The notes under the pieces were generated by a model, which was not told where the DNA came from, made no database searches, and was given only the letters and a program-made list of their open reading frames with translations. The translations under genes and the position numbers were made by a program. Below are positions 55,844 to 62,914 of a DNA stretch of 64,000 bases, one piece after another; within the stretch, counting starts at the first letter, position 1; each line of letters opens with the position of its first letter. The stretch lies in assembly GCA_900318175.1 (NCBI GenBank), contig ONJQ01000011.1, positions 5,373 through 69,372 of the forward strand. Reading direction: 5' to 3'. This stretch comes from an uncultured Bacteroidales bacterium (GTDB taxonomy: Bacteria > Bacteroidota > Bacteroidia > Bacteroidales > P3).

Positions 55844-56401
55844 ATGAAAAAAATCCTCATCGCCATTGCAATGCTCTGCATCGCACTGCCCCTGTGGGCA
55901 CAGACTCCCGTTTTGAACACCACCAAGAATGCCCCCAAGGCTAAAAAGGAGGCCAAGAAAGAGGAGCGCAAAGACACCAAAGAGATGGAAAAGCCCTACG
56001 ACGAGAAAATCAACGCCATGGAGCAGATTGACAAAGCCCTGGAGCAAATCCGAGGCACCCACCGGCTGCTCATTTGCCAGGTGGGCGGCAACTGGTGCCC
56101 GTGGTGCCTCAAGTTCAACAAATTCATCAACGAGGACAAGGAAATCTCCCAGTTTGTGGCTGACAATTTCGTCTACATCCACGTCAATACCTCGAAAGCC
56201 AACAAGAACTACGAAGCCATGAAACGCCTCGGCAACCCTGGCCGTTTCGGCTACCCCGCCCTTGTTGTGCTCAACGAGGAAGGCAGAGTGCTGCATATCC
56301 AAAACAGCGCCTACCTTGAAGACGGGCAGAGCTACGACCGCAAAAAGGTCCTCGCCTTCTTCCAGAACTGGACCCGCGAAGCCATCGACAACATCAAGTA
56401 A
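55844..56401 (+). CDS. periplasmic thioredoxin-fold protein (WCPWC active site)
   Basis: It has the signal peptide MKKILIAIAMLCIALPLWAQ and a Lys/Glu-rich spacer. The redox motif is GGNWCPWC. Confidence 0.8.
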   Translation: MKKILIAIAMLCIALPLWAQTPVLNTTKNAPKAKKEAKKEERKDTKEMEKPYDEKINAMEQIDKALEQIRGTHRLLICQVGGNWCPWCLKFNKFINEDKEISQFVADNFVYIHVNTSKANKNYEAMKRLGNPGRFGYPALVVLNEEGRVLHIQNSAYLEDGQSYDRKKVLAFFQNWTREAIDNIK

Positions 56402-56428: not shown

Positions 56429-56734
56429 TACTACGAATCTGGTGGCATTGACATAAATGGTGCTTCTTATGGAGCGTCATATTATGATGGTAAAATCAAT
56501 ATGAGTCTACGGAGAGGTAGCGGACTGACCTTCACTTTTAATGTTGGATCTATTTCCAGAGTTGAAATCATTTGTGATCATATTGATTTTACCGCGCCCT
56601 CTGGGTGGTCATGGAATTCCGATGACCATAAGTTGATATGGACTGGCACTCCGAGTGCTTCAGTAAGTCTATATACTGGAGCAACAAGCGCAATCTACGA
56701 TATTACGTCTATCGAGTTCACCATGGATAATTAA
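56429..56734 (+). pseudogene. 3' remnant of a surface-protein-like gene (open frame with no credible start; the only ATG is at 56501)
   Basis: The frame is open from the TAA at 56426-56428. The translation ..YYESGGIDINGASYGASYYDGKINMSLRRGSGLTFTF..IEFTMDN looks like a C-terminal beta-sandwich fragment, and the segment is AT-rich. Confidence 0.4.
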
Positions 56735-56753
56735 ACAGCATTCCACCGATAAA

Positions 56754-56795
56754 GACGAAAAAAGCCCTGTCGAATTCGGCAGGGCTTTTTTCGTC
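56754..56795. terminator. bidirectional terminator: 16-bp-arm palindrome GACGAAAAAAGCCCTG..CAGGGCTTTTTTCGTC
   Basis: Read directly from the sequence. A GC core is flanked by A6 and T6. Confidence 0.8.
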
Positions 56796-56843
56796 CTTTC
56801 ATTACAGTTATAGGGGTCTTCTATAAACCACCCCCTTGGGGGT

Positions 56844-56955
56844 GAGCTATGAATAACACCCCACTTCAACCCCACCCCTGCCGCCTTCGGGCTGGCAGGG
56901 ATTTCTTTTTCTTGTTATGTCGGGAAAAATGTGTATCTTTGCAAACTGAAAGGAG
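56844..56955 (+). repeat. cassette-junction module copy A: hairpin (CCCTGCCGCC TTCG GGCTGGCAGGG) + T-tract + promoter (-7 TATCTTTG at 56934-56941) + AAAGGAG
   Basis: The 47-bp core GGGATTTCTTTTTCTTGTTATGTCGGGAAAAATGTGTATCTTTGCAA is identical in copies A, B and C. Confidence 0.85.
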
Positions 56956-56961
56956 TATATT

Positions 56962-57138
56962 ATGGACACAATGGAATGTACTACAAATCCAACCACAAAA
57001 GTACCTCTTCGTACACCTTCACCATCGCGCGATGTACGCGTCGAGATGACTAAAACGCCAGAAGAAGAACTGATGACGGAGGAGGAATACTTCGGCATAT
57101 TAAGAAAGAGGGTGAACGAGTATTATGACATCCTATAA
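56962..57138 (+). CDS. orphan small ORF (58 aa) in the first cassette
   Basis: My translation is MDTMECTTNPTTKVPLRTPSPSRDVRVEMTKTPEEELMTEEEYFGILRKRVNEYYDIL. The ATG lies 6 nt after the module's AAAGGAG. It is too short for the ORF track. Confidence 0.4.
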   Translation: MDTMECTTNPTTKVPLRTPSPSRDVRVEMTKTPEEELMTEEEYFGILRKRVNEYYDIL

Positions 57139-57141
57139 GAT

Positions 57142-57238
57142 GTGCTAAGCACCCATCTATTTGATCTATTCCCTGCTGGTCTATGCTGGCGGGGATTTCT
57201 TTTTCTTGTTATGTCGGGAAAAATGTGTATCTTTGCAA
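57142..57238 (+). repeat. cassette-junction module copy B (hairpin CCCTGCTGG..CTGGCGGGG + T-tract + promoter, -7 box 57228-57235)
   Basis: It shares the 47-bp identical core. Identity ends right after TTTGCAA. Confidence 0.85.
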
Positions 57239-57319
57239 CGTCAAACACCCCATAGTCCGCAAGGGTGAGAGGTGGGCGACAGGACATATAGATAATACAT
57301 AAAAAAAGGAGAAAACACC

Positions 57320-57556
57320 ATGTGTACATATAGCATTACATTGAACGACATGTTGATTGAAAAGGCACGTCCTGCGTTTGCCGATGAGAATGCATTGCAA
57401 CAATGGTTGCAAGAACAGGTATCTATCGCATTGGAAAAGTATATCGAAAATACCGAGTCTGAGCAACATGTGATGGTGAAAGAAAGTCTGACGAAGGCCT
57501 TCAATGAGTTGCATACGGGTCAGGCAAAGAGGAACGCGCGCCAGTTGTTTTCATAA
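57320..57556 (+). CDS. putative antitoxin of the RelE/ParE-type toxin (assigned by position and size)
   Basis: 78 aa, preceded by AAAGGAG. It ends 13 nt before the toxin start. Confidence 0.6.
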   Translation: MCTYSITLNDMLIEKARPAFADENALQQWLQEQVSIALEKYIENTESEQHVMVKESLTKAFNELHTGQAKRNARQLFS

Positions 57557-57569
57557 ATCATCATTGGCA

Positions 57570-57911
57570 ATGTCTGTAACATTTGACTATCTGCCCGAAT
57601 TCGAAAGGCGGGCAAAATCGTTGGAAAAGAAATACAAATCTTTCAAATCTGACTACCTGGCCTTTCTTGATGCTTTAGAAGAAAATCCTTATAGTGGAGA
57701 GCCGCTCGGGCACAACACATACAAATATCGAATGTCCATTGCCTCAAAGGGAAAAGGTAAAAGTGGAGGCGCAAGAGTGATAACATACAATATTCAGCAA
57801 GCCAACGAAGATATTTTTATTACGCTGATGTCCATCTATGACAAGTCCGAAATTAGCAATGTGTCTGATGCCTACTTGCGACAACTAATACAAACAATCG
57901 AAAGGGAATGA
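57570..57911 (+). CDS. type II toxin, RelE/ParE superfamily
   Basis: The start is MSVTFDYLPEFERRAK (113 aa). KGKGKSGGARVITY is the characteristic GKSGG(Y/A)RVI motif of this toxin group. Confidence 0.82.
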   Translation: MSVTFDYLPEFERRAKSLEKKYKSFKSDYLAFLDALEENPYSGEPLGHNTYKYRMSIASKGKGKSGGARVITYNIQQANEDIFITLMSIYDKSEISNVSDAYLRQLIQTIERE

Positions 57912-57968
57912 TTACTAAACAGAAAAGTATGAGTAACATGACATAAAGGAACATAATAAACATACTTT

Positions 57969-58077
57969 GAGCTAACCGCTCATTTCTTCAACCCTATTCC
58001 CTGCTGGTCTATGCTGGCGGGGATTTCTTTTTCTTGTTATGTCGGGAAAAATGTGTATCTTTGCAAACTGAAAGGAG
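57969..58077 (+). repeat. cassette-junction module copy C (full length, -7 box 58056-58063, ends in AAAGGAG)
   Basis: It begins GAGCTAACCGCTCATTTCTTCAACCCTATT, then has the same hairpin and core as copy B and the same 3' end as copy A. Confidence 0.85.
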
Positions 58078-58079
58078 AC

Positions 58080-58367
58080 ATGAAAATGAGTACTGCAACG
58101 TATAGCAATCCGGCAATGAACAATCTTTGGAACTATATTCAAGGATTGTCTCTTTCTGCCAGTGACCGCCAATGGCTTGCCGATAGGCTTGTTGAGAAGA
58201 CAGATGAACAGCAGGCGGCAAAGTCCGAGGAAGAGCTGGTATTCCCACACTTCGACGACGGCTTTGTACCATCCGAAAGCCTTCTATCCATGGTGTTAGG
58301 ACCACTGCCTGAAGGGTTTGACATTGACAAAGAACTTGAACTAATGTGGGAGGAACGAGCCAAATGA
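58080..58367 (+). CDS. putative antitoxin of the PIN toxin (assigned by position)
   Basis: The start is MKMSTATYSN at 58080 (95 aa). Its stop overlaps the toxin start (ATGA). Confidence 0.6.
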   Translation: MKMSTATYSNPAMNNLWNYIQGLSLSASDRQWLADRLVEKTDEQQAAKSEEELVFPHFDDGFVPSESLLSMVLGPLPEGFDIDKELELMWEERAK

Positions 58368-58777
58368 AAGTGTTTCTCGACACAAATGTTGTTATTGACT
58401 TCATCTGTAAAAGAGAGCCATTTTTTACGGATGCAAAGAACATTTTTGTCATGCACGAAAGAGGGGAAATTGAATGCAGTGTTTCTGCTCTCACCATCAT
58501 CAATTGTGCATATATCATGCGCAAAGTATTTGACAAAAATGAAGTATTACGGGTTGTTGGACTATTGTGTAAAAGGTTTGATGTATCTGCTATAAACAAG
58601 TCAATCATAATGGATGCCGTCAAAAAACAGTCTTACGACTTTGAAGACACCGTACAATACCTTTCAGCATTGCCATACCAGCCAGACGTAATCCTTACTC
58701 GCGACAAGAAAGGCTTTGCCGATTTGGGCATATTGGTGATGACCCCTACCGAATTTGTTGCAAGGAGCCGAATGTAA
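58364..58777 (+). CDS. PIN-domain (VapC-like) toxin
   Basis: MKVFLDTNVVIDF (first acidic residue), ..DFEDTVQY.. and ILTRDKKGF give the PIN acidic quartet pattern. The protein is 137 aa. Confidence 0.82.
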   Translation: MKVFLDTNVVIDFICKREPFFTDAKNIFVMHERGEIECSVSALTIINCAYIMRKVFDKNEVLRVVGLLCKRFDVSAINKSIIMDAVKKQSYDFEDTVQYLSALPYQPDVILTRDKKGFADLGILVMTPTEFVARSRM

Positions 58778-58843
58778 TATTGTTCAAATAGAATAACTCA
58801 CAAAAACCAACTATGTAGACAGAAGAAATAGTATCACATAATT

Positions 58844-58864
58844 GAGCTAACCGCCCATATTCTC
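58844..58864 (+). repeat. partial fourth copy (5' end only) of the cassette-junction module
   Basis: GAGCTAACCGCCCATATTCTC matches the first 21 nt of copy C with 3 mismatches. It marks the right edge of the array. Confidence 0.55.
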
Positions 58865-59023
58865 GCTGTAAGAATCTGGACAATTCCGATGTGTATGAGA
58901 ATAGGCTCGCGGAAGGTTCACGCCTTGGGCGTGGATTATTCGTGTCTTATTAATACACATGGCAGTCCAGAGCCATTACGGATAATAAGGAGCAAGAAAA
59001 TAATAATCTAACGCACTTTTTAT

Positions 59024-62000
59024 ATGAAACAGAAATTATTAACTCTCACCATCTTATTGATGGGAATCTCTCCAAATGTTTTTGCTTACGATTTCTCCGG
59101 TTTAGCACCCACTGGGCAGACTTTGTATTTCAATATTGTTAATGATGGTGCACAAGTAACATACCCGGGTTCGAGTGGGGGGTACTGGACTGGATATACC
59201 ATGCCGACAGGTAACCTCATTATCCCCGATAGTGTATCTCATGGGGGTCATTCATTTGCTGTCACCTCTATTGACTCCTATGCATTCATTAATTGCAATG
59301 GACTTACATCAGTCACGATACCTGCACCTGTCACAGCCATAGGAGATTCATCTTTTTCCAATTGTAGTGGACTTGCTAATGTACATTATAATGCCAGTAA
59401 TTGTACTAATGCTGGTCGTGTTAGCTATCATTGGTGGGAGCGGGATTTGTATGAAGATGACTACTCAATCGTTAATGCCTTTAGTGGGTGCAATAATATA
59501 CAGCATATTGATATAGGGGATAATGTAACAAGGATTCCTGATTTTATTTTTTATGGATGTGCTTTTTCTTCCGTTAATATTCCTAGTAACGTATCGTACA
59601 TTGGACGTTTGGCATTTGGGTTCTGTGGAGACTCTTCAACCGTTTATTTTAATGCAGCTAATTGTTTGTATGCGGGAGATTTTTTTACAGATGGGTATGA
59701 AATGTGGCATTGGGCTAGTGCTTTCTATGGTACTAGTATATCAGAAGTGTTTTTGGGGGATGAAGTAACATCAATCCCGCCGTTTTTATTTGCTGGTTGT
59801 ACGATAGGCTCTATAACAATACCAGACTCTATTAACTCAATAGGCGAATACGCTTTTGGCTTTTGTAATATTACCACTATGTATTACAATGCTATTAATT
59901 GCACAACTTATTATACTCCAGGTACCACTGCTCTTCACTATTATGTCGGGGCGGTTAGAGATGGCGGGACTGCTATTATTCATAGCAGTATCTCCACACT
60001 AAATATAGGGAATGATGTGCAGACCGTGAATAATATTCAAAGATGTAATGGAACGATCTTGAATCTTAATACTATCCCAAGGGATATGATTGGTGACCAC
60101 CCTTTTGATTTAGAAGGTTCAATTTTTTTCTCTGATTATTATTGGAGTAATAGATTTTCTATTGTAAATATCGGAAATGGTATTACTGACATTCCAGGTG
60201 GTTTGTTTTCCGAGAGTAGAATTCGTTCAGTGACAATTCCTAGCACAGTTACAACCATAGGAGTGGGGGCTTTCAGAGGATGTAGTTCTTTGGATTCTAT
60301 CTCAATTCCCAACTCGGTCACAACTATTAATGAGTTTGCTTTTTCTGGTTGCAGTAGCTTGAATTCTATTACCCTTGGTAGTTCCATCGATACTATTCGT
60401 TCTTATGCATTTAATGGTTGCTCTGGATTGCATCAAATTATTTCGTTAAATAATTCTGCACCGAGATTGTATCCATATTCATGGGTTGATGATTCTATTA
60501 ATATATTTGATGGTGTAAGTTCAACTATACCAATTATTATCCCATGTGGTAGTCTGGCTTCTTATCAATCAGAATGGTATTATTTTTCCAATTTCATAGT
60601 AGATATACCTTATGTTCTCTCTGTAATATCGGCAGATAACAGCATGGGTACTGTATCAGTATCAGATAGCTCATGCCCATTTCCTGTGGTAGATATTATG
60701 GCTACGGCCAACCCCGGATATAGATTCAACCATTGGAGTGACCATAACACAGATAATCCTCGCACCCTTACATTAAGCATGGATACTACATTAGTAGCAT
60801 ACTTTTCCATAGACAACTCCGTGGCAGACACAGTGTTTGTTCTGGATACGGTCATTATACACGACACAACCTTCATTAACAATTACTTCCATGATACAAC
60901 TTATATCAACAACTATATCTATGATACAAGCTATGTCACCACATACGTCCACGACACGCTGATTGCCTACGTGAACCAGTATGTGCATGACACCACGTTT
61001 ATCACCAACTACATCCACGACACCAGCTATATCTACCGCACGCAGTATGACACCCTGTTTGTCTACAACACCGTCCACGATACCGCTTGGCTCACCGCCT
61101 ACATTCATGACACCGCCTTTATCAATAACTACATCCACGATACCGTGTGGCTGACACAGACGGTGTGGGATTATATACACGACACGGTGATAAAGCATGT
61201 ACACCACTATATCCACGACACCACTTTCATCAACAACTATATCCACGACACAACCTATCTAACTCAGTATGTAGACCGCTATATTCACGACACAGTGATG
61301 CAATTTGTCAACCAGTACATCCATGACACCACATTTATCAACAACTACATCCACGACACAGTGATCAACTACGTGAACAATTACATTCACGATACCACTT
61401 TTATCAACAATTACCTGCACGACACAGTATGGATGACCAATTATGTCTATGACACAGTCTATATCAACAACACAGTCCACGACACTGCCTATATCACACA
61501 GTATGTCCATGATACCACATTTGTGAACAATTACGTCCACGACACGTTGATTGCATACGTGAACCAGTATGTACATGACACCACTTTTATAACCAACTAC
61601 ATCCACGACACCAGCTATATCTACCGCACGCAGTACGACACCCTGTTTGTCTATAACACCGTCCACGACACCGCCTGGCTCACTGCATACGTCCATGACA
61701 CCGCCTTTGTGAATAACTATATCCATGATACCTTATGGTTGACGCAGACTGTGTGGGAATATATCCACGACACGGTGATAGAACACGTACATCATTACAT
61801 ACACGACACCACGATTGTGAACAATTACATACACGACACCGTGATGCAGTACGTGAACCAGTACATTCATGACACCACCTTCATCAACAACTACATTCAC
61901 GACACAGTGTTCAACTATATAAACAACTACATCCATGACACGACGTTTATCACCAATTACGTTCATGATACCACCTTCTACCCTGTCTATATCCATGATA

Positions 62001-62914
62001 CAACCTTTGTGAATAACTATATTCACGACACACTGTTCCGCACTCGCTATGTCTATGACACTACCTATATCAACAACTATATACACGACACGGTGCTGGT
62101 CTATGTCACCGCAGGAGATGACACCACATATATCAACAACTACGTACACGACACTCTCTACATCTATCGCACCCTCTACGACACCATCTTTGTCTATACC
62201 CACGTCCACGACACCACCTTCCTCACTCAGTACATCCACGACACTGCTTTTGTGAATCACTATATCCACGACACACTCTACCTCACCCAATGGATGTATG
62301 AGTATATCCACGACACCATCATCCGGACGGTGACAGAATACGTTCATGACACCACTTTCGTGAACAACTATATACACGACACCACCTACCTCGACCGCTA
62401 CATCTACGAGTACCTGCACGACACCATCATGCAGTACATCAACCACTACATTCATGACACCACCTATATCAACAACTACATCCACGACACCGTTCATCTG
62501 ACGCAGTACGTCCACGATACGGCGTTTATCTACCAGTACATCCACGACACTATCGTGAATTACGTGAACAACTACATCCACGACACCACCTTCATCAACA
62601 ACTACATCTATGACACCATCTACCTCTACCGCTATATCCACGACACAATCTATGTCCACGATACCATCTACATCCAGGAGGGCGAGGGCATAGACAACAT
62701 CGCGCTACTCAATGCCAAGATTTATCAGCGCAATGGGCAGATAGTGGTGGAGGGTGCTGAGGGGCATCCCGTGTATCTCTACGACGTGGTGGGGCGGTTG
62801 CTGGCCACCAAACGTGAGGCGGCACAGGAGGTGCTGCTCGATGTGCCTGCCTCGGGTGCTTACCTTGTCAAGATAGGCGACGCTCCCGCACGGCGCGTTG
62901 TCGTGCGACGGTAA
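59024..62914 (+). CDS. T9SS-secreted surface protein: signal peptide, BspA-type leucine-rich repeats, ~57 short (Y-I/V-H-D-T) repeats, type-A T9SS C-terminal sorting domain
   Basis: 1296 aa. The LRR_5-type units look like IPDSV..I..YAF..C..LTSVTIP. The repeat block spans 60850-62675. The CTD is IYQRNGQIVVEGAEGHPVYLYDVVGRLL..ASGAYLVKIGD..RRVVVRR. Confidence 0.85.
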   Translation: MKQKLLTLTILLMGISPNVFAYDFSGLAPTGQTLYFNIVNDGAQVTYPGSSGGYWTGYTMPTGNLIIPDSVSHGGHSFAVTSIDSYAFINCNGLTSVTIPAPVTAIGDSSFSNCSGLANVHYNASNCTNAGRVSYHWWERDLYEDDYSIVNAFSGCNNIQHIDIGDNVTRIPDFIFYGCAFSSVNIPSNVSYIGRLAFGFCGDSSTVYFNAANCLYAGDFFTDGYEMWHWASAFYGTSISEVFLGDEVTSIPPFLFAGCTIGSITIPDSINSIGEYAFGFCNITTMYYNAINCTTYYTPGTTALHYYVGAVRDGGTAIIHSSISTLNIGNDVQTVNNIQRCNGTILNLNTIPRDMIGDHPFDLEGSIFFSDYYWSNRFSIVNIGNGITDIPGGLFSESRIRSVTIPSTVTTIGVGAFRGCSSLDSISIPNSVTTINEFAFSGCSSLNSITLGSSIDTIRSYAFNGCSGLHQIISLNNSAPRLYPYSWVDDSINIFDGVSSTIPIIIPCGSLASYQSEWYYFSNFIVDIPYVLSVISADNSMGTVSVSDSSCPFPVVDIMATANPGYRFNHWSDHNTDNPRTLTLSMDTTLVAYFSIDNSVADTVFVLDTVIIHDTTFINNYFHDTTYINNYIYDTSYVTTYVHDTLIAYVNQYVHDTTFITNYIHDTSYIYRTQYDTLFVYNTVHDTAWLTAYIHDTAFINNYIHDTVWLTQTVWDYIHDTVIKHVHHYIHDTTFINNYIHDTTYLTQYVDRYIHDTVMQFVNQYIHDTTFINNYIHDTVINYVNNYIHDTTFINNYLHDTVWMTNYVYDTVYINNTVHDTAYITQYVHDTTFVNNYVHDTLIAYVNQYVHDTTFITNYIHDTSYIYRTQYDTLFVYNTVHDTAWLTAYVHDTAFVNNYIHDTLWLTQTVWEYIHDTVIEHVHHYIHDTTIVNNYIHDTVMQYVNQYIHDTTFINNYIHDTVFNYINNYIHDTTFITNYVHDTTFYPVYIHDTTFVNNYIHDTLFRTRYVYDTTYINNYIHDTVLVYVTAGDDTTYINNYVHDTLYIYRTLYDTIFVYTHVHDTTFLTQYIHDTAFVNHYIHDTLYLTQWMYEYIHDTIIRTVTEYVHDTTFVNNYIHDTTYLDRYIYEYLHDTIMQYINHYIHDTTYINNYIHDTVHLTQYVHDTAFIYQYIHDTIVNYVNNYIHDTTFINNYIYDTIYLYRYIHDTIYVHDTIYIQEGEGIDNIALLNAKIYQRNGQIVVEGAEGHPVYLYDVVGRLLATKREAAQEVLLDVPASGAYLVKIGDAPARRVVVRR
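60850..62675 (+). repeat. coding tandem repeat block, unit 30-42 bp (10-14 aa, consensus x-x-x-x-N/Q-Y-I/V-H-D-T), with a ~280-bp segmental duplication (60947-61225 vs 61535-61813)
   Basis: I counted 57-58 (H/Y/D)DT units in the supplied translation. The duplicated segments are offset by exactly 588 bp (196 codons). Confidence 0.9.

Follow-up and report, generated by a model that had tools for sequence, protein, structure and literature searches.

Hot spots in which toxin-antitoxin (TA) and defence genes gather are known, but the gain, loss and expression of small cassettes outside integrons are poorly understood. The superintegron of Vibrio cholerae carries TA cassettes, including higBA-2. 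Orphan cassette arrays of Rhs and contact-dependent inhibition (CDI) systems are tandem conflict cassettes that keep a short conserved stretch, through which they are swapped or deleted by homologous recombination. The pdif modules of Acinetobacter plasmids are small units, often TA pairs, with 28-bp XerC/D sites in alternating orientation, and are found in many combinations. Correia elements (CREE) are dispersed miniature inverted-repeat transposable elements (MITEs) of ~100 nt, with terminal inverted repeats, that supply promoters and terminators. Within the order Bacteroidales, rAID-1 loci are arrays of orphan type VI secretion system (T6SS) immunity genes headed by a conserved XerD-family recombinase (Ross et al., 10.1101/471110); a general framework on polymorphic toxin loci is given in PMC3482391. 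Here we analyse a window of 64,000 nt (C17:5373-69372) from the 2.9-Mb, 70-contig metagenome-assembled genome (MAG) of an uncultured Bacteroidales bacterium. It holds a row of TA cassettes separated by direct copies of a non-coding junction that combines a predicted transcription terminator with a predicted promoter. The system shares the cassette logic of the known arrays, lacks the features that define integrons and rAID-1 loci, and differs by its terminator-promoter repeat. Our literature searches found no description of TA arrays bounded in this manner.

The window was compared with 143 species of the same genus (cited below by G numbers), all uncultured rumen Bacteroidales MAGs, and with 14 metagenome contigs that gave ~25 further module copies. 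On this material we hold it very probable that an array with a shared, re-assorting junction is real.

The array and its junction

The elements of the array are the following:
56844-56955, + strand: junction module A, with an X-like 5′ segment, hairpin H1 at 56876-56900 (UUCG loop), a T-tract, the -33 element TTG at 56912, the -7 element TATCTTTG at 56934-56941 and the leader ACTGAAAGGAG.
56962-57138, + strand: cassette F1, a 58-aa putative antitoxin of a ParDE-type pair whose toxin is deleted here; no family match.
57142-57238, + strand: junction module B, with the remnant of a ParE-type 3′ untranslated region (3′UTR; X2), hairpin H2 at 57170-57195, a T-tract and a promoter at 57206-57235.
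57239-57319, + strand: long-type leader of cassette F2, whose first ~57 nt, with a GCAA-capped hairpin, match the start of a genus-wide leader element of ~330 nt (93% over 60 nt to the leader family).
57320-57911, + strand: cassette F2, a 78-aa putative antitoxin (57320-57556) and a 113-aa toxin of the RelE superfamily, HigB-2-like (57570-57911).
57967-58077, + strand: junction module C, with the X1 segment (TGAGCTAACCGCTCA...), hairpin H2 at 57998-58023, a T-tract, a promoter at 58034-58063 and the leader ACTGAAAGGAG.
58080-58777, + strand: cassette F3, a VapB-like 93-aa putative antitoxin (58086-58367; alternative ATG at 58080) and a PIN-domain VapC toxin (58364-58777).
58842-58990, + strand: native 3′ flank of the VapBC cassette, ~150 nt, with a hairpin CACGCC-TTG-GGCGTG at 58920-58934.

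A repeat search recovered three in-register copies, at 56872-56951, 57166-57245 and 57994-58073. Each has the same order of a GC-rich hairpin, a T-tract, TTG-N19-TATCTTTG and a short leader, the whole junction extending over ~110 nt. Over 73 nt, copies B and C do not differ at all (100% identity), and over 65 nt A and C have one difference (98.5% identity). The assembly has exactly three occurrences of the 47-nt core GGGATTTCTTTTTCTTGTTATGTCGGGAAAAATGTGTATCTTTGCAA; no further match with up to 3 mismatches was found there, nor any in the reversed control. The preliminary description of the window, made by reading the sequence, had proposed three copies of such a module sharing an identical 47-nt core that contains a canonical -7 box, and is borne out on the copies, the identity and the box. 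It had also listed a 21-bp stub behind the last cassette as a further piece of the module. The repeat search does pair TTGAGCTAACCGCTCAT (57967) with TTGAGCTAACCGCCCAT (58842), with the common form TTGAGCTAACCGC(T/C)CAT. However, the stub (58842-58864) is the first 23 nt of a conserved block, TTGAGCTAACCGCC plus the next ~125 nt including the motif CTTATTAAT, which lies behind VapBC in G025, in several metagenome contigs and in G082 (VapC 61% identical). No match to the module core was found in G082, so that a decayed module is ruled out as the origin of the stub. X1 within the module probably arose from the first part of this VapBC 3′ flank.

The 5′ half of the junction has the pattern of an intrinsic terminator, a GC-rich hairpin with an immediate U-tract, in the sequence and predicted folding of the window modules. 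The hairpin has a folding energy of -20.6 kcal/mol in module A and of -17.0 kcal/mol in B and C (z ~ -3.2 to -3.5), ATTTCTTTTTCTT follows directly after each, and a terminator scan flags copies B and C. A hairpin is kept (-9.6 to -29 kcal/mol) in every copy that lies behind a co-oriented gene (40+). The array-first copies behind a divergent gene have none (-0.6 to -4.1 kcal/mol). The hairpin therefore belongs to the upstream unit, as its predicted terminator. Three alleles were distinguished: H1, CCCTGCCGCC-TTCG-GGCTGGCAGGG; H2, CCCTGCTGGT-CTAT-GCTGGCGGGG; and H3, CCTGCTGG-TTTT-TTGGCTGGCAGG. The allele of module A, H1, is joined to other upstream contexts in relatives. The difference between module A and modules B and C had been attributed to compensatory changes. 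The structure is indeed kept, but clean compensatory pairs are not found: the changes are allelic, most of them affect one side of a pair (U-A to U.G, C-G to U.G), and the apex is re-registered. Unitigs from metatranscriptomes have their ends close to the modules, but unitigs break at repeats in any case.

The 3′ half of the junction is, by pattern match, a near-consensus promoter of the primary sigma factor (sigma-ABfr type). A TAnnTTTG element at -7 with TTTG/TTG at -33, ~19 nt apart, is the pattern of this factor in Bacteroidetes (PMC7366714). The window has six matches to TTG-N19-TAnnTTTG, with 0.44 expected, and the modules account for three of them. The sequence AAAGGAG shared by modules A and C had been labelled a ribosome binding site; it stands as a conserved shared leader, a role in ribosome binding being only presumptive because Bacteroidetes mRNAs are generally devoid of classical Shine-Dalgarno sequences (PMC7366714). 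Rumen metatranscriptome contigs cover F2 with a depth of 12 and 48 in two runs. These unitig-based contigs start at ~57251-57272, that is ~10-30 nt past the predicted transcription start site (TSS; the -7 box ends at 57235), and end at 57884-57990. Five TA families are found under one promoter in the arrays of the genus, which suggests that they are not each autoregulated through family-specific operators within that promoter. The use of one identical promoter for five unrelated families argues against the usual picture of TA promoters as family-specific and autoregulated. The junction might also provide Bacteroidales genetics with a compact natural terminator-promoter "insulator" part.

The layout of a type II TA operon, a small antitoxin gene adjoining or overlapping a toxin gene of known family, was found in F2 and F3, and in the ParE and MNT/HepT units of relatives. 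The cassettes are accordingly annotated from their sequence as type II TA operons, with the antitoxins assigned by position; searches of PADLOC and NCBIfam gave no family match for these small proteins. Rfam at permissive E-values returned chance matches or none for the window region and the array of one relative. The genes of the two pairs in the preliminary description, RelE-type and PIN/VapC, are borne out at the level of annotation. The F2 toxin matches Vibrio HigB-2 in the PDB (5ja8, E=2e-7) and Pfam RelE below the cut-off (E=7e-5), and the F3 toxin matches PIN_3 (E=4e-16). F2 has 96-97% nucleotide identity to copies in G064, G128 and G140. Relatives of F3 occur in G091 (94% amino-acid identity) and in five further species (53-61%), and its toxin is truncated or lost in G025, G032, G035 and G140. 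The 58-aa ORF of F1 had been considered an orphan. It is instead the leftover antitoxin of a deleted ParE, because copies with 81-84% nucleotide identity overlap an intact 102-aa ParE gene (PF05016, E=7e-6) in G032, G130, G160, G163 and metagenome contigs. The toxin-less allele is common to the window, G031, G140 and G164. Its excision joint is CCTATAAG/ATGTGCTAAG (window 57125-57150), the ParE gene having apparently been removed at a short CCTA(T/A)A direct repeat.

Distribution and reassortment among species

When up to 3 mismatches are allowed, 11 of the 143 species have the core, always in arrays and with 1-3 copies at each locus. Five more species, G074, G091, G164, G166 and G147, have a diverged allele, TTTTTTTTCTTTCYATGTCGGGAAAAAGTTGTAWTTTTGCA, which brings the number to 16; in G147 the match is a lone promoter-like sequence outside any array. 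No core was found in other genera in a scan of species-representative genomes. The cargo between copies comprises ParDE, the HigB2/RelE-like pair, VapBC, whose PIN gene is often truncated or gone, two types of MNT/HepT (PF01909 + PF01934) and a three-gene unit. Presence in 11-16 species with unrelated cassettes in differing orders means that the module is a portable unit, as had been proposed, rather than the private product of a local triplication. The slot behaves as a general defence hot spot.

A VapBC cassette between promoter copies was also found with another sequence family. In G028 (L098, G028:C53) and G090 (L099, G090:C1), VapBC lies between two copies of an unrelated promoter block of ~46 nt, GGAGAAAATAAATTYCGCCAATTGAAATAAWTGTCGTATYTTTGCA, with a hairpin and T-tract before the second copy. 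The architecture thus recurs with a different sequence, which fits a Campbell-type insertion at promoters.

Fifty-three junctions were typed. At least 19 pairings of seven upstream contexts with five downstream cassettes were counted. The order is not collinear: the window and L046 have F1 before F3, but L056, L059 and G032 have it behind F3; the MNT/HepT type a unit is placed before type b and VapB in G025 and after both in G140:C1. The differences between species consist of whole cassette-plus-junction units, the homology to the window ending in the core (56944, 57185 or 58066). In G064 the lipoprotein terminator is joined straight to F2, with no F1 (homology 56430-56944, then 57185-57994). 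G140 has F1-F2 and no F3 (56903-58066, 95.6% identity), G128 has F2 only (57185-58066, 96.6%), and in a contig of 95% identity from an RNA library 56891 is followed directly by 58013, without F1 and F2. Cassette-sized insertions and deletions that end in the core are what recombination between the repeats predicts, in line with the earlier suggestion that the repeats drive loss and shuffling of cassettes. The syntenic flanks have only 81.6% identity to G140 over 14.9 kb and 76.5% to G128 over 20.5 kb while the cassettes reach 95.6-97% with G140, G128 and G064. The cassettes and their junctions have therefore moved between species, or been replaced, well after the chromosome diverged.

Several arrays stop at contig ends, as expected because repeats break short-read assembly. 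The Logan unitigs from all runs likewise break at every module, so that cassette order per sample, TSS and terminator use are not readable from them. In four DNA runs of cattle and sheep, which come from several studies, all parts of the window array have the same depth, and the array is thus stable within the species as sampled. The case illustrates both the limits and the reach of short-read rumen MAGs for arrays bounded by repeats.

The three-gene unit (109, 171 and 123 aa) lies inside arrays in L029 9395-10607 (G031:C18) and L033 4473-5685 (G140:C1); it has no Pfam match and its middle gene matches PADLOC PDC-M32A weakly. Past the last junction, G032 (L026 1682-3520, G032:C2) has a DUF262/HEC-06-like gene (PADLOC E=6e-47) and G160 (L034 5927-7297, G160:C6) an HD-domain dGTPase-like gene behind junction and leader. 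A 522-aa caspase-like ORF is encoded by the minus strand of L027 (G025:C21). The last two were named by sequence inspection.

Probable recombination at the junction and alternative explanations

Where recombination takes place within the junction was addressed by aligning 47 hairpin-bearing copies and computing the normalised mutual information (MI/H) of each column with the flanking units. Columns up to the hairpin loop track the upstream unit (0.7-0.96) and columns past TTTGCAA track the downstream unit (0.9-1.0). The polymorphic columns of the core (CTTG(TT/CC/CT), GTC(G/A)GG and AAAAA(T/A/G)) track neither side (0.05-0.4). Crossovers are therefore spread over the core, as one fixed point would give a sharp switch. 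The long leader of relatives is joined to varying downstream sequences, after GACATATAGATAAGAC or earlier. No gene matching Pfam Phage_integrase (PF00589) was found on the array contigs of 11 array-bearing genomes except for two Xer-like matches; serine recombinases and transposases were not searched. These two lie 10 kb from the array in G163 and ~57 kb from it in G130, belong to a class present once per genome, and are read as housekeeping Xer. The window contig has no match, in agreement with the absence of an integrase noted at first reading.

We favour homologous recombination among the pool of junctions, without an integrase, as the probable mechanism. The locus would be a chromosomal hot spot upstream of a surface adhesin gene with leucine-rich repeats (LRR), occupied by a row of autonomous type II TA operons. 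The 5′ half of each junction would be the 3′UTR and intrinsic terminator of the preceding operon and its 3′ half the promoter and a leader of ~15-20 nt for the following one, making each cassette an insulated, separately promoted transcription unit. The junction could act as portable homology, since 47-73 nt of it do not differ from cassette to cassette and differ little from species to species. RecA-type recombination between direct-repeat junctions would loop out a cassette. Campbell-style integration of incoming cassette-plus-junction DNA would restore junctions at both ends of the insert. Cassettes would be re-sorted between arrays of different species by unequal exchange following the import of DNA. 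The junction is most likely an expression unit and at the same time a recombination handle that requires no integrase. The common junction, the varying content and order of the cassettes, their excess of identity over the flanks and the indels that end in the core are direct observations; the pathway of recombination and the points where transcription starts and stops are what we infer. Such arrays offer a simple test bed for how short non-coding homology could take the place of a site-specific recombinase.

Several observations weigh against this model. A homology of 47-120 nt is short for RecA to recombine efficiently. The left boundary (T)GAGCTAAC is sharp in at least four cassette families, which pure homologous recombination does not predict and which could point to a defined joining site. 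Two copies of one array resemble each other in the core no more than two copies taken from different arrays do (2.81 versus 2.89 matches of 5; 1306 of 2000 permutations reached the observed difference), giving no sign of in situ gene conversion. Concerted evolution inside arrays was dropped after this negative homogenisation test. Part of the conservation of the core is explained simply by promoter function: its 3′ 38 nt are close to a generic strong promoter of the genus, with many 80-96% matches across the genome of the window and those of relatives, for example before tRNA genes. Even so, the best other genomic site has 4 mismatches in these 38 nt whereas the array copies are identical over 47-73 nt. 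Every genome is a MAG or metagenome contig, and repeats of this length break or can mis-join short-read assemblies; unitig-based RNA data cannot show TSS, termination or read-through. Finally, one sheep metatranscriptome contig (window 58193-59300) extends from the PIN gene across the VapBC 3′ flank to the beginning of the LRR adhesin gene. It may reflect transcription that runs on from the last cassette into the adhesin gene, DNA carry-over being also possible.

Vertical descent would dispense with movement between species: an ancestral larger array formed by serial tandem duplication of a promoter region would have been pruned by deletions between the repeats, and function as a strong promoter and terminator would have kept the junction alike. 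Deletions between direct repeats are expected and seen, the promoter part resembles the generic promoters of the genus, and the arrays occupy the same two chromosomal slots. Both cassette orders could arise by loss from an F3-F1-F3 duplication like that of G032. Yet the identity of the cassettes between species, 95-97%, far exceeds that of the syntenic flanks, 76-82%, and the GC content of the patch is 10-20% below that of core genes. The raw reads of run X24 hold only F2 (at least 97% identity, ~3-5x), with F1, F3 and the flanks absent, a weak point given the low depth. Descent alone is unlikely to account for the arrays.

A further explanation is a recombinase encoded elsewhere in the genome, acting on the junction, or on its 5′ end TGAGCTAACCGC with the hairpin, as in integrons, rAID-1 loci or Xer/dif modules. 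The resemblance to integrons and to clusters of attC sites lacking integron integrases (CALINs) is real in the cassette logic: short unit cassettes in the same orientation, a conserved hairpin-bearing junction, TA-rich cargo varying between relatives, and an F2 toxin homologous to the superintegron HigB-2. The sharp left boundary occurs in front of unrelated cassettes, and the same 12-23 nt head the VapBC 3′ flank. The rAID-1 arrays, found in the same order, show that repetitive intergenic sequences can be paired with a XerD-family recombinase; they share with the present arrays small conflict genes and signs of horizontal acquisition that include skewed GC (10.1101/471110).

Several features expected of site-specific recombination are, however, not found. 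No IntI is present, and the only PF00589 match within 10 kb of an array in the 11 genomes is the Xer-like one of G163. An R/L-box attC architecture and a conserved GTT are absent, and X1 does not pair with the 3′ part, as judged by words, pairing and linkage of single-nucleotide polymorphisms (SNPs), with no attC covariance model applied; the R′-like box GTTATGT reads GCCATGT or GCTATGT in other copies. Breakpoints are dispersed, the core SNPs being unlinked to either side with no single switch point, and the X1 boundary differs in G091, where it begins at TTTCTTCA. The palindrome TGAGC-N5-GCTCA at the 5′ end, which was considered as a recombinase core, is not maintained, its left arm varying freely. 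The cassettes are neither promoterless nor dependent on a Pc promoter, each having a predicted TTG-N19-TATCTTTG of its own and a terminator before it. Of the integron likeness first drawn, therefore, the cassette logic stands while a linked recombinase, attC features and a single breakpoint site do not. The rAID-1 loci differ by their recombinase and by their cargo; in the present arrays the cargo is complete or decayed TA operons and the repeat is a terminator-promoter unit. The pdif modules differ from the chromosomal direct repeats found here by their alternating orientation; no 28-bp Xer site was evident, the only palindromes being the terminator hairpin and the unconserved TGAGC-N5-GCTCA, although no dif model of the genus was applied. 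In Rhs/CDI arrays, the homology lies in the coding sequence of the main toxin gene and its exchange changes the expressed tip. Here it is non-coding and each cassette appears to be self-expressed. We consider a recombinase-driven system improbable.

The wider proposal, that the junction is the recombination site of an unrecognised cassette system of rumen Bacteroidales without linked integrase, served by a trans-acting recombinase or by a dedicated homology-driven route, is equally doubtful. If true, its equivalent of attC would carry terminator and promoter, so that captured cassettes would be insulated and expressed on arrival. Combined with the hypervariable, rod-like leader RNA at the same locus (described below), it would be a new kind of platform for gene capture, which brings TA and defence genes to a site before a surface-adhesin operon.

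It is very unlikely that the ~110-nt module is a small mobile element, MITE or Correia-like, inserted between existing TA operons. Its ends are fairly sharp and, like the Correia elements of Neisseria, it is a repeat of ~100 nt that by sequence could terminate upstream and promote downstream transcription. It has no terminal inverted repeats, target duplications or dispersed copies: the three of this genome are all in this array and those of relatives are confined to arrays. An assembly artefact, in which strain variants were collapsed or chimerised across the repeated promoter, has hardly any credibility, for although the MAG is in 70 contigs, unitigs from all runs break at the module and the leader halves of metagenome contig L053 do not pair, suggesting a chimera, each junction type of the window was seen independently in other assemblies and studies (F1 to F2 in G140; F2 to X1 in G128 and G140; X1 to F3 in G035, G032 and L056) and all parts have equal depth in the four cattle and sheep runs.

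Flanking genes and a putative structured leader RNA family

The array is flanked by the following features:
56430-56734, + strand: decapitated 3′ remnant of a lipoprotein gene of ~356 aa, with a 77-aa ORF (56501-56734), at the left edge of an AT-richer accessory patch.
56751-56798, no strand assigned: very strong intrinsic terminator behind the remnant gene, bidirectional, with a 19-bp stem (-33.6 kcal/mol, z = -8.1).
59024-62914, + strand: adhesin gene of the LRR and type IX secretion system (T9SS) type; match to the NCBIfam LRR adhesin HupY/LrrG domain, far below the equivalog cut-off.

The remnant is 88-93% identical to the 3′ end of full-length genes of 355/356 aa in G031 and G064. The homology begins at 56430, from where the GC content falls from 55-62% to 38-45%. 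The left neighbour of the arrays is a thioredoxin-like gene (the argF-transporter-Trx slot) or cinA. LRR-type ORFs lie behind the arrays in G031, G074, G091, G128, G140, G163 and G164, and are the right-hand neighbour wherever this flank is on the contig. The thioredoxin-like lipoprotein gene beside the array (55844-56401) is 72-77% identical between species, argF being 85-96% and the transporter 82-94% identical. The gene, which borders the variable region, has either evolved unusually fast or been replaced.

In related species a non-coding leader of ~330 nt, as in L030 7277-7640 (G128:C38), lies behind the last junction and would be driven by it; a variable ORF and the adhesin gene come next. 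The leader folds into a rod of ~235 nt with GNRA and UUCG loops. Eight copies that are otherwise 95-100% identical have 11 base pairs changed on both sides; these are concentrated in three short helices, which are hypervariable yet still complementary. Two other interpretations were discarded: the leader is not an inverton because pairing runs along its whole length, and an ORF crossing it on the minus strand was rejected because it is frameshifted between species. No Rfam match was found for the leader, which may be a new cis-regulatory or structured RNA. It forms a multi-copy family in 87 of the 143 species, placed before lipoprotein, adhesin and putative vWA-PP2C (phosphatase)-kinase operons, the latter read from N-terminal sequence only. 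The genome of the window has three full copies elsewhere (C41:6955-7315, C12:4012-4275 and C28:19963-20213), located before lipoprotein genes and a putative vWA-phosphatase-kinase cluster, and the window keeps the first ~57 nt (57239-57296) as the leader of F2.

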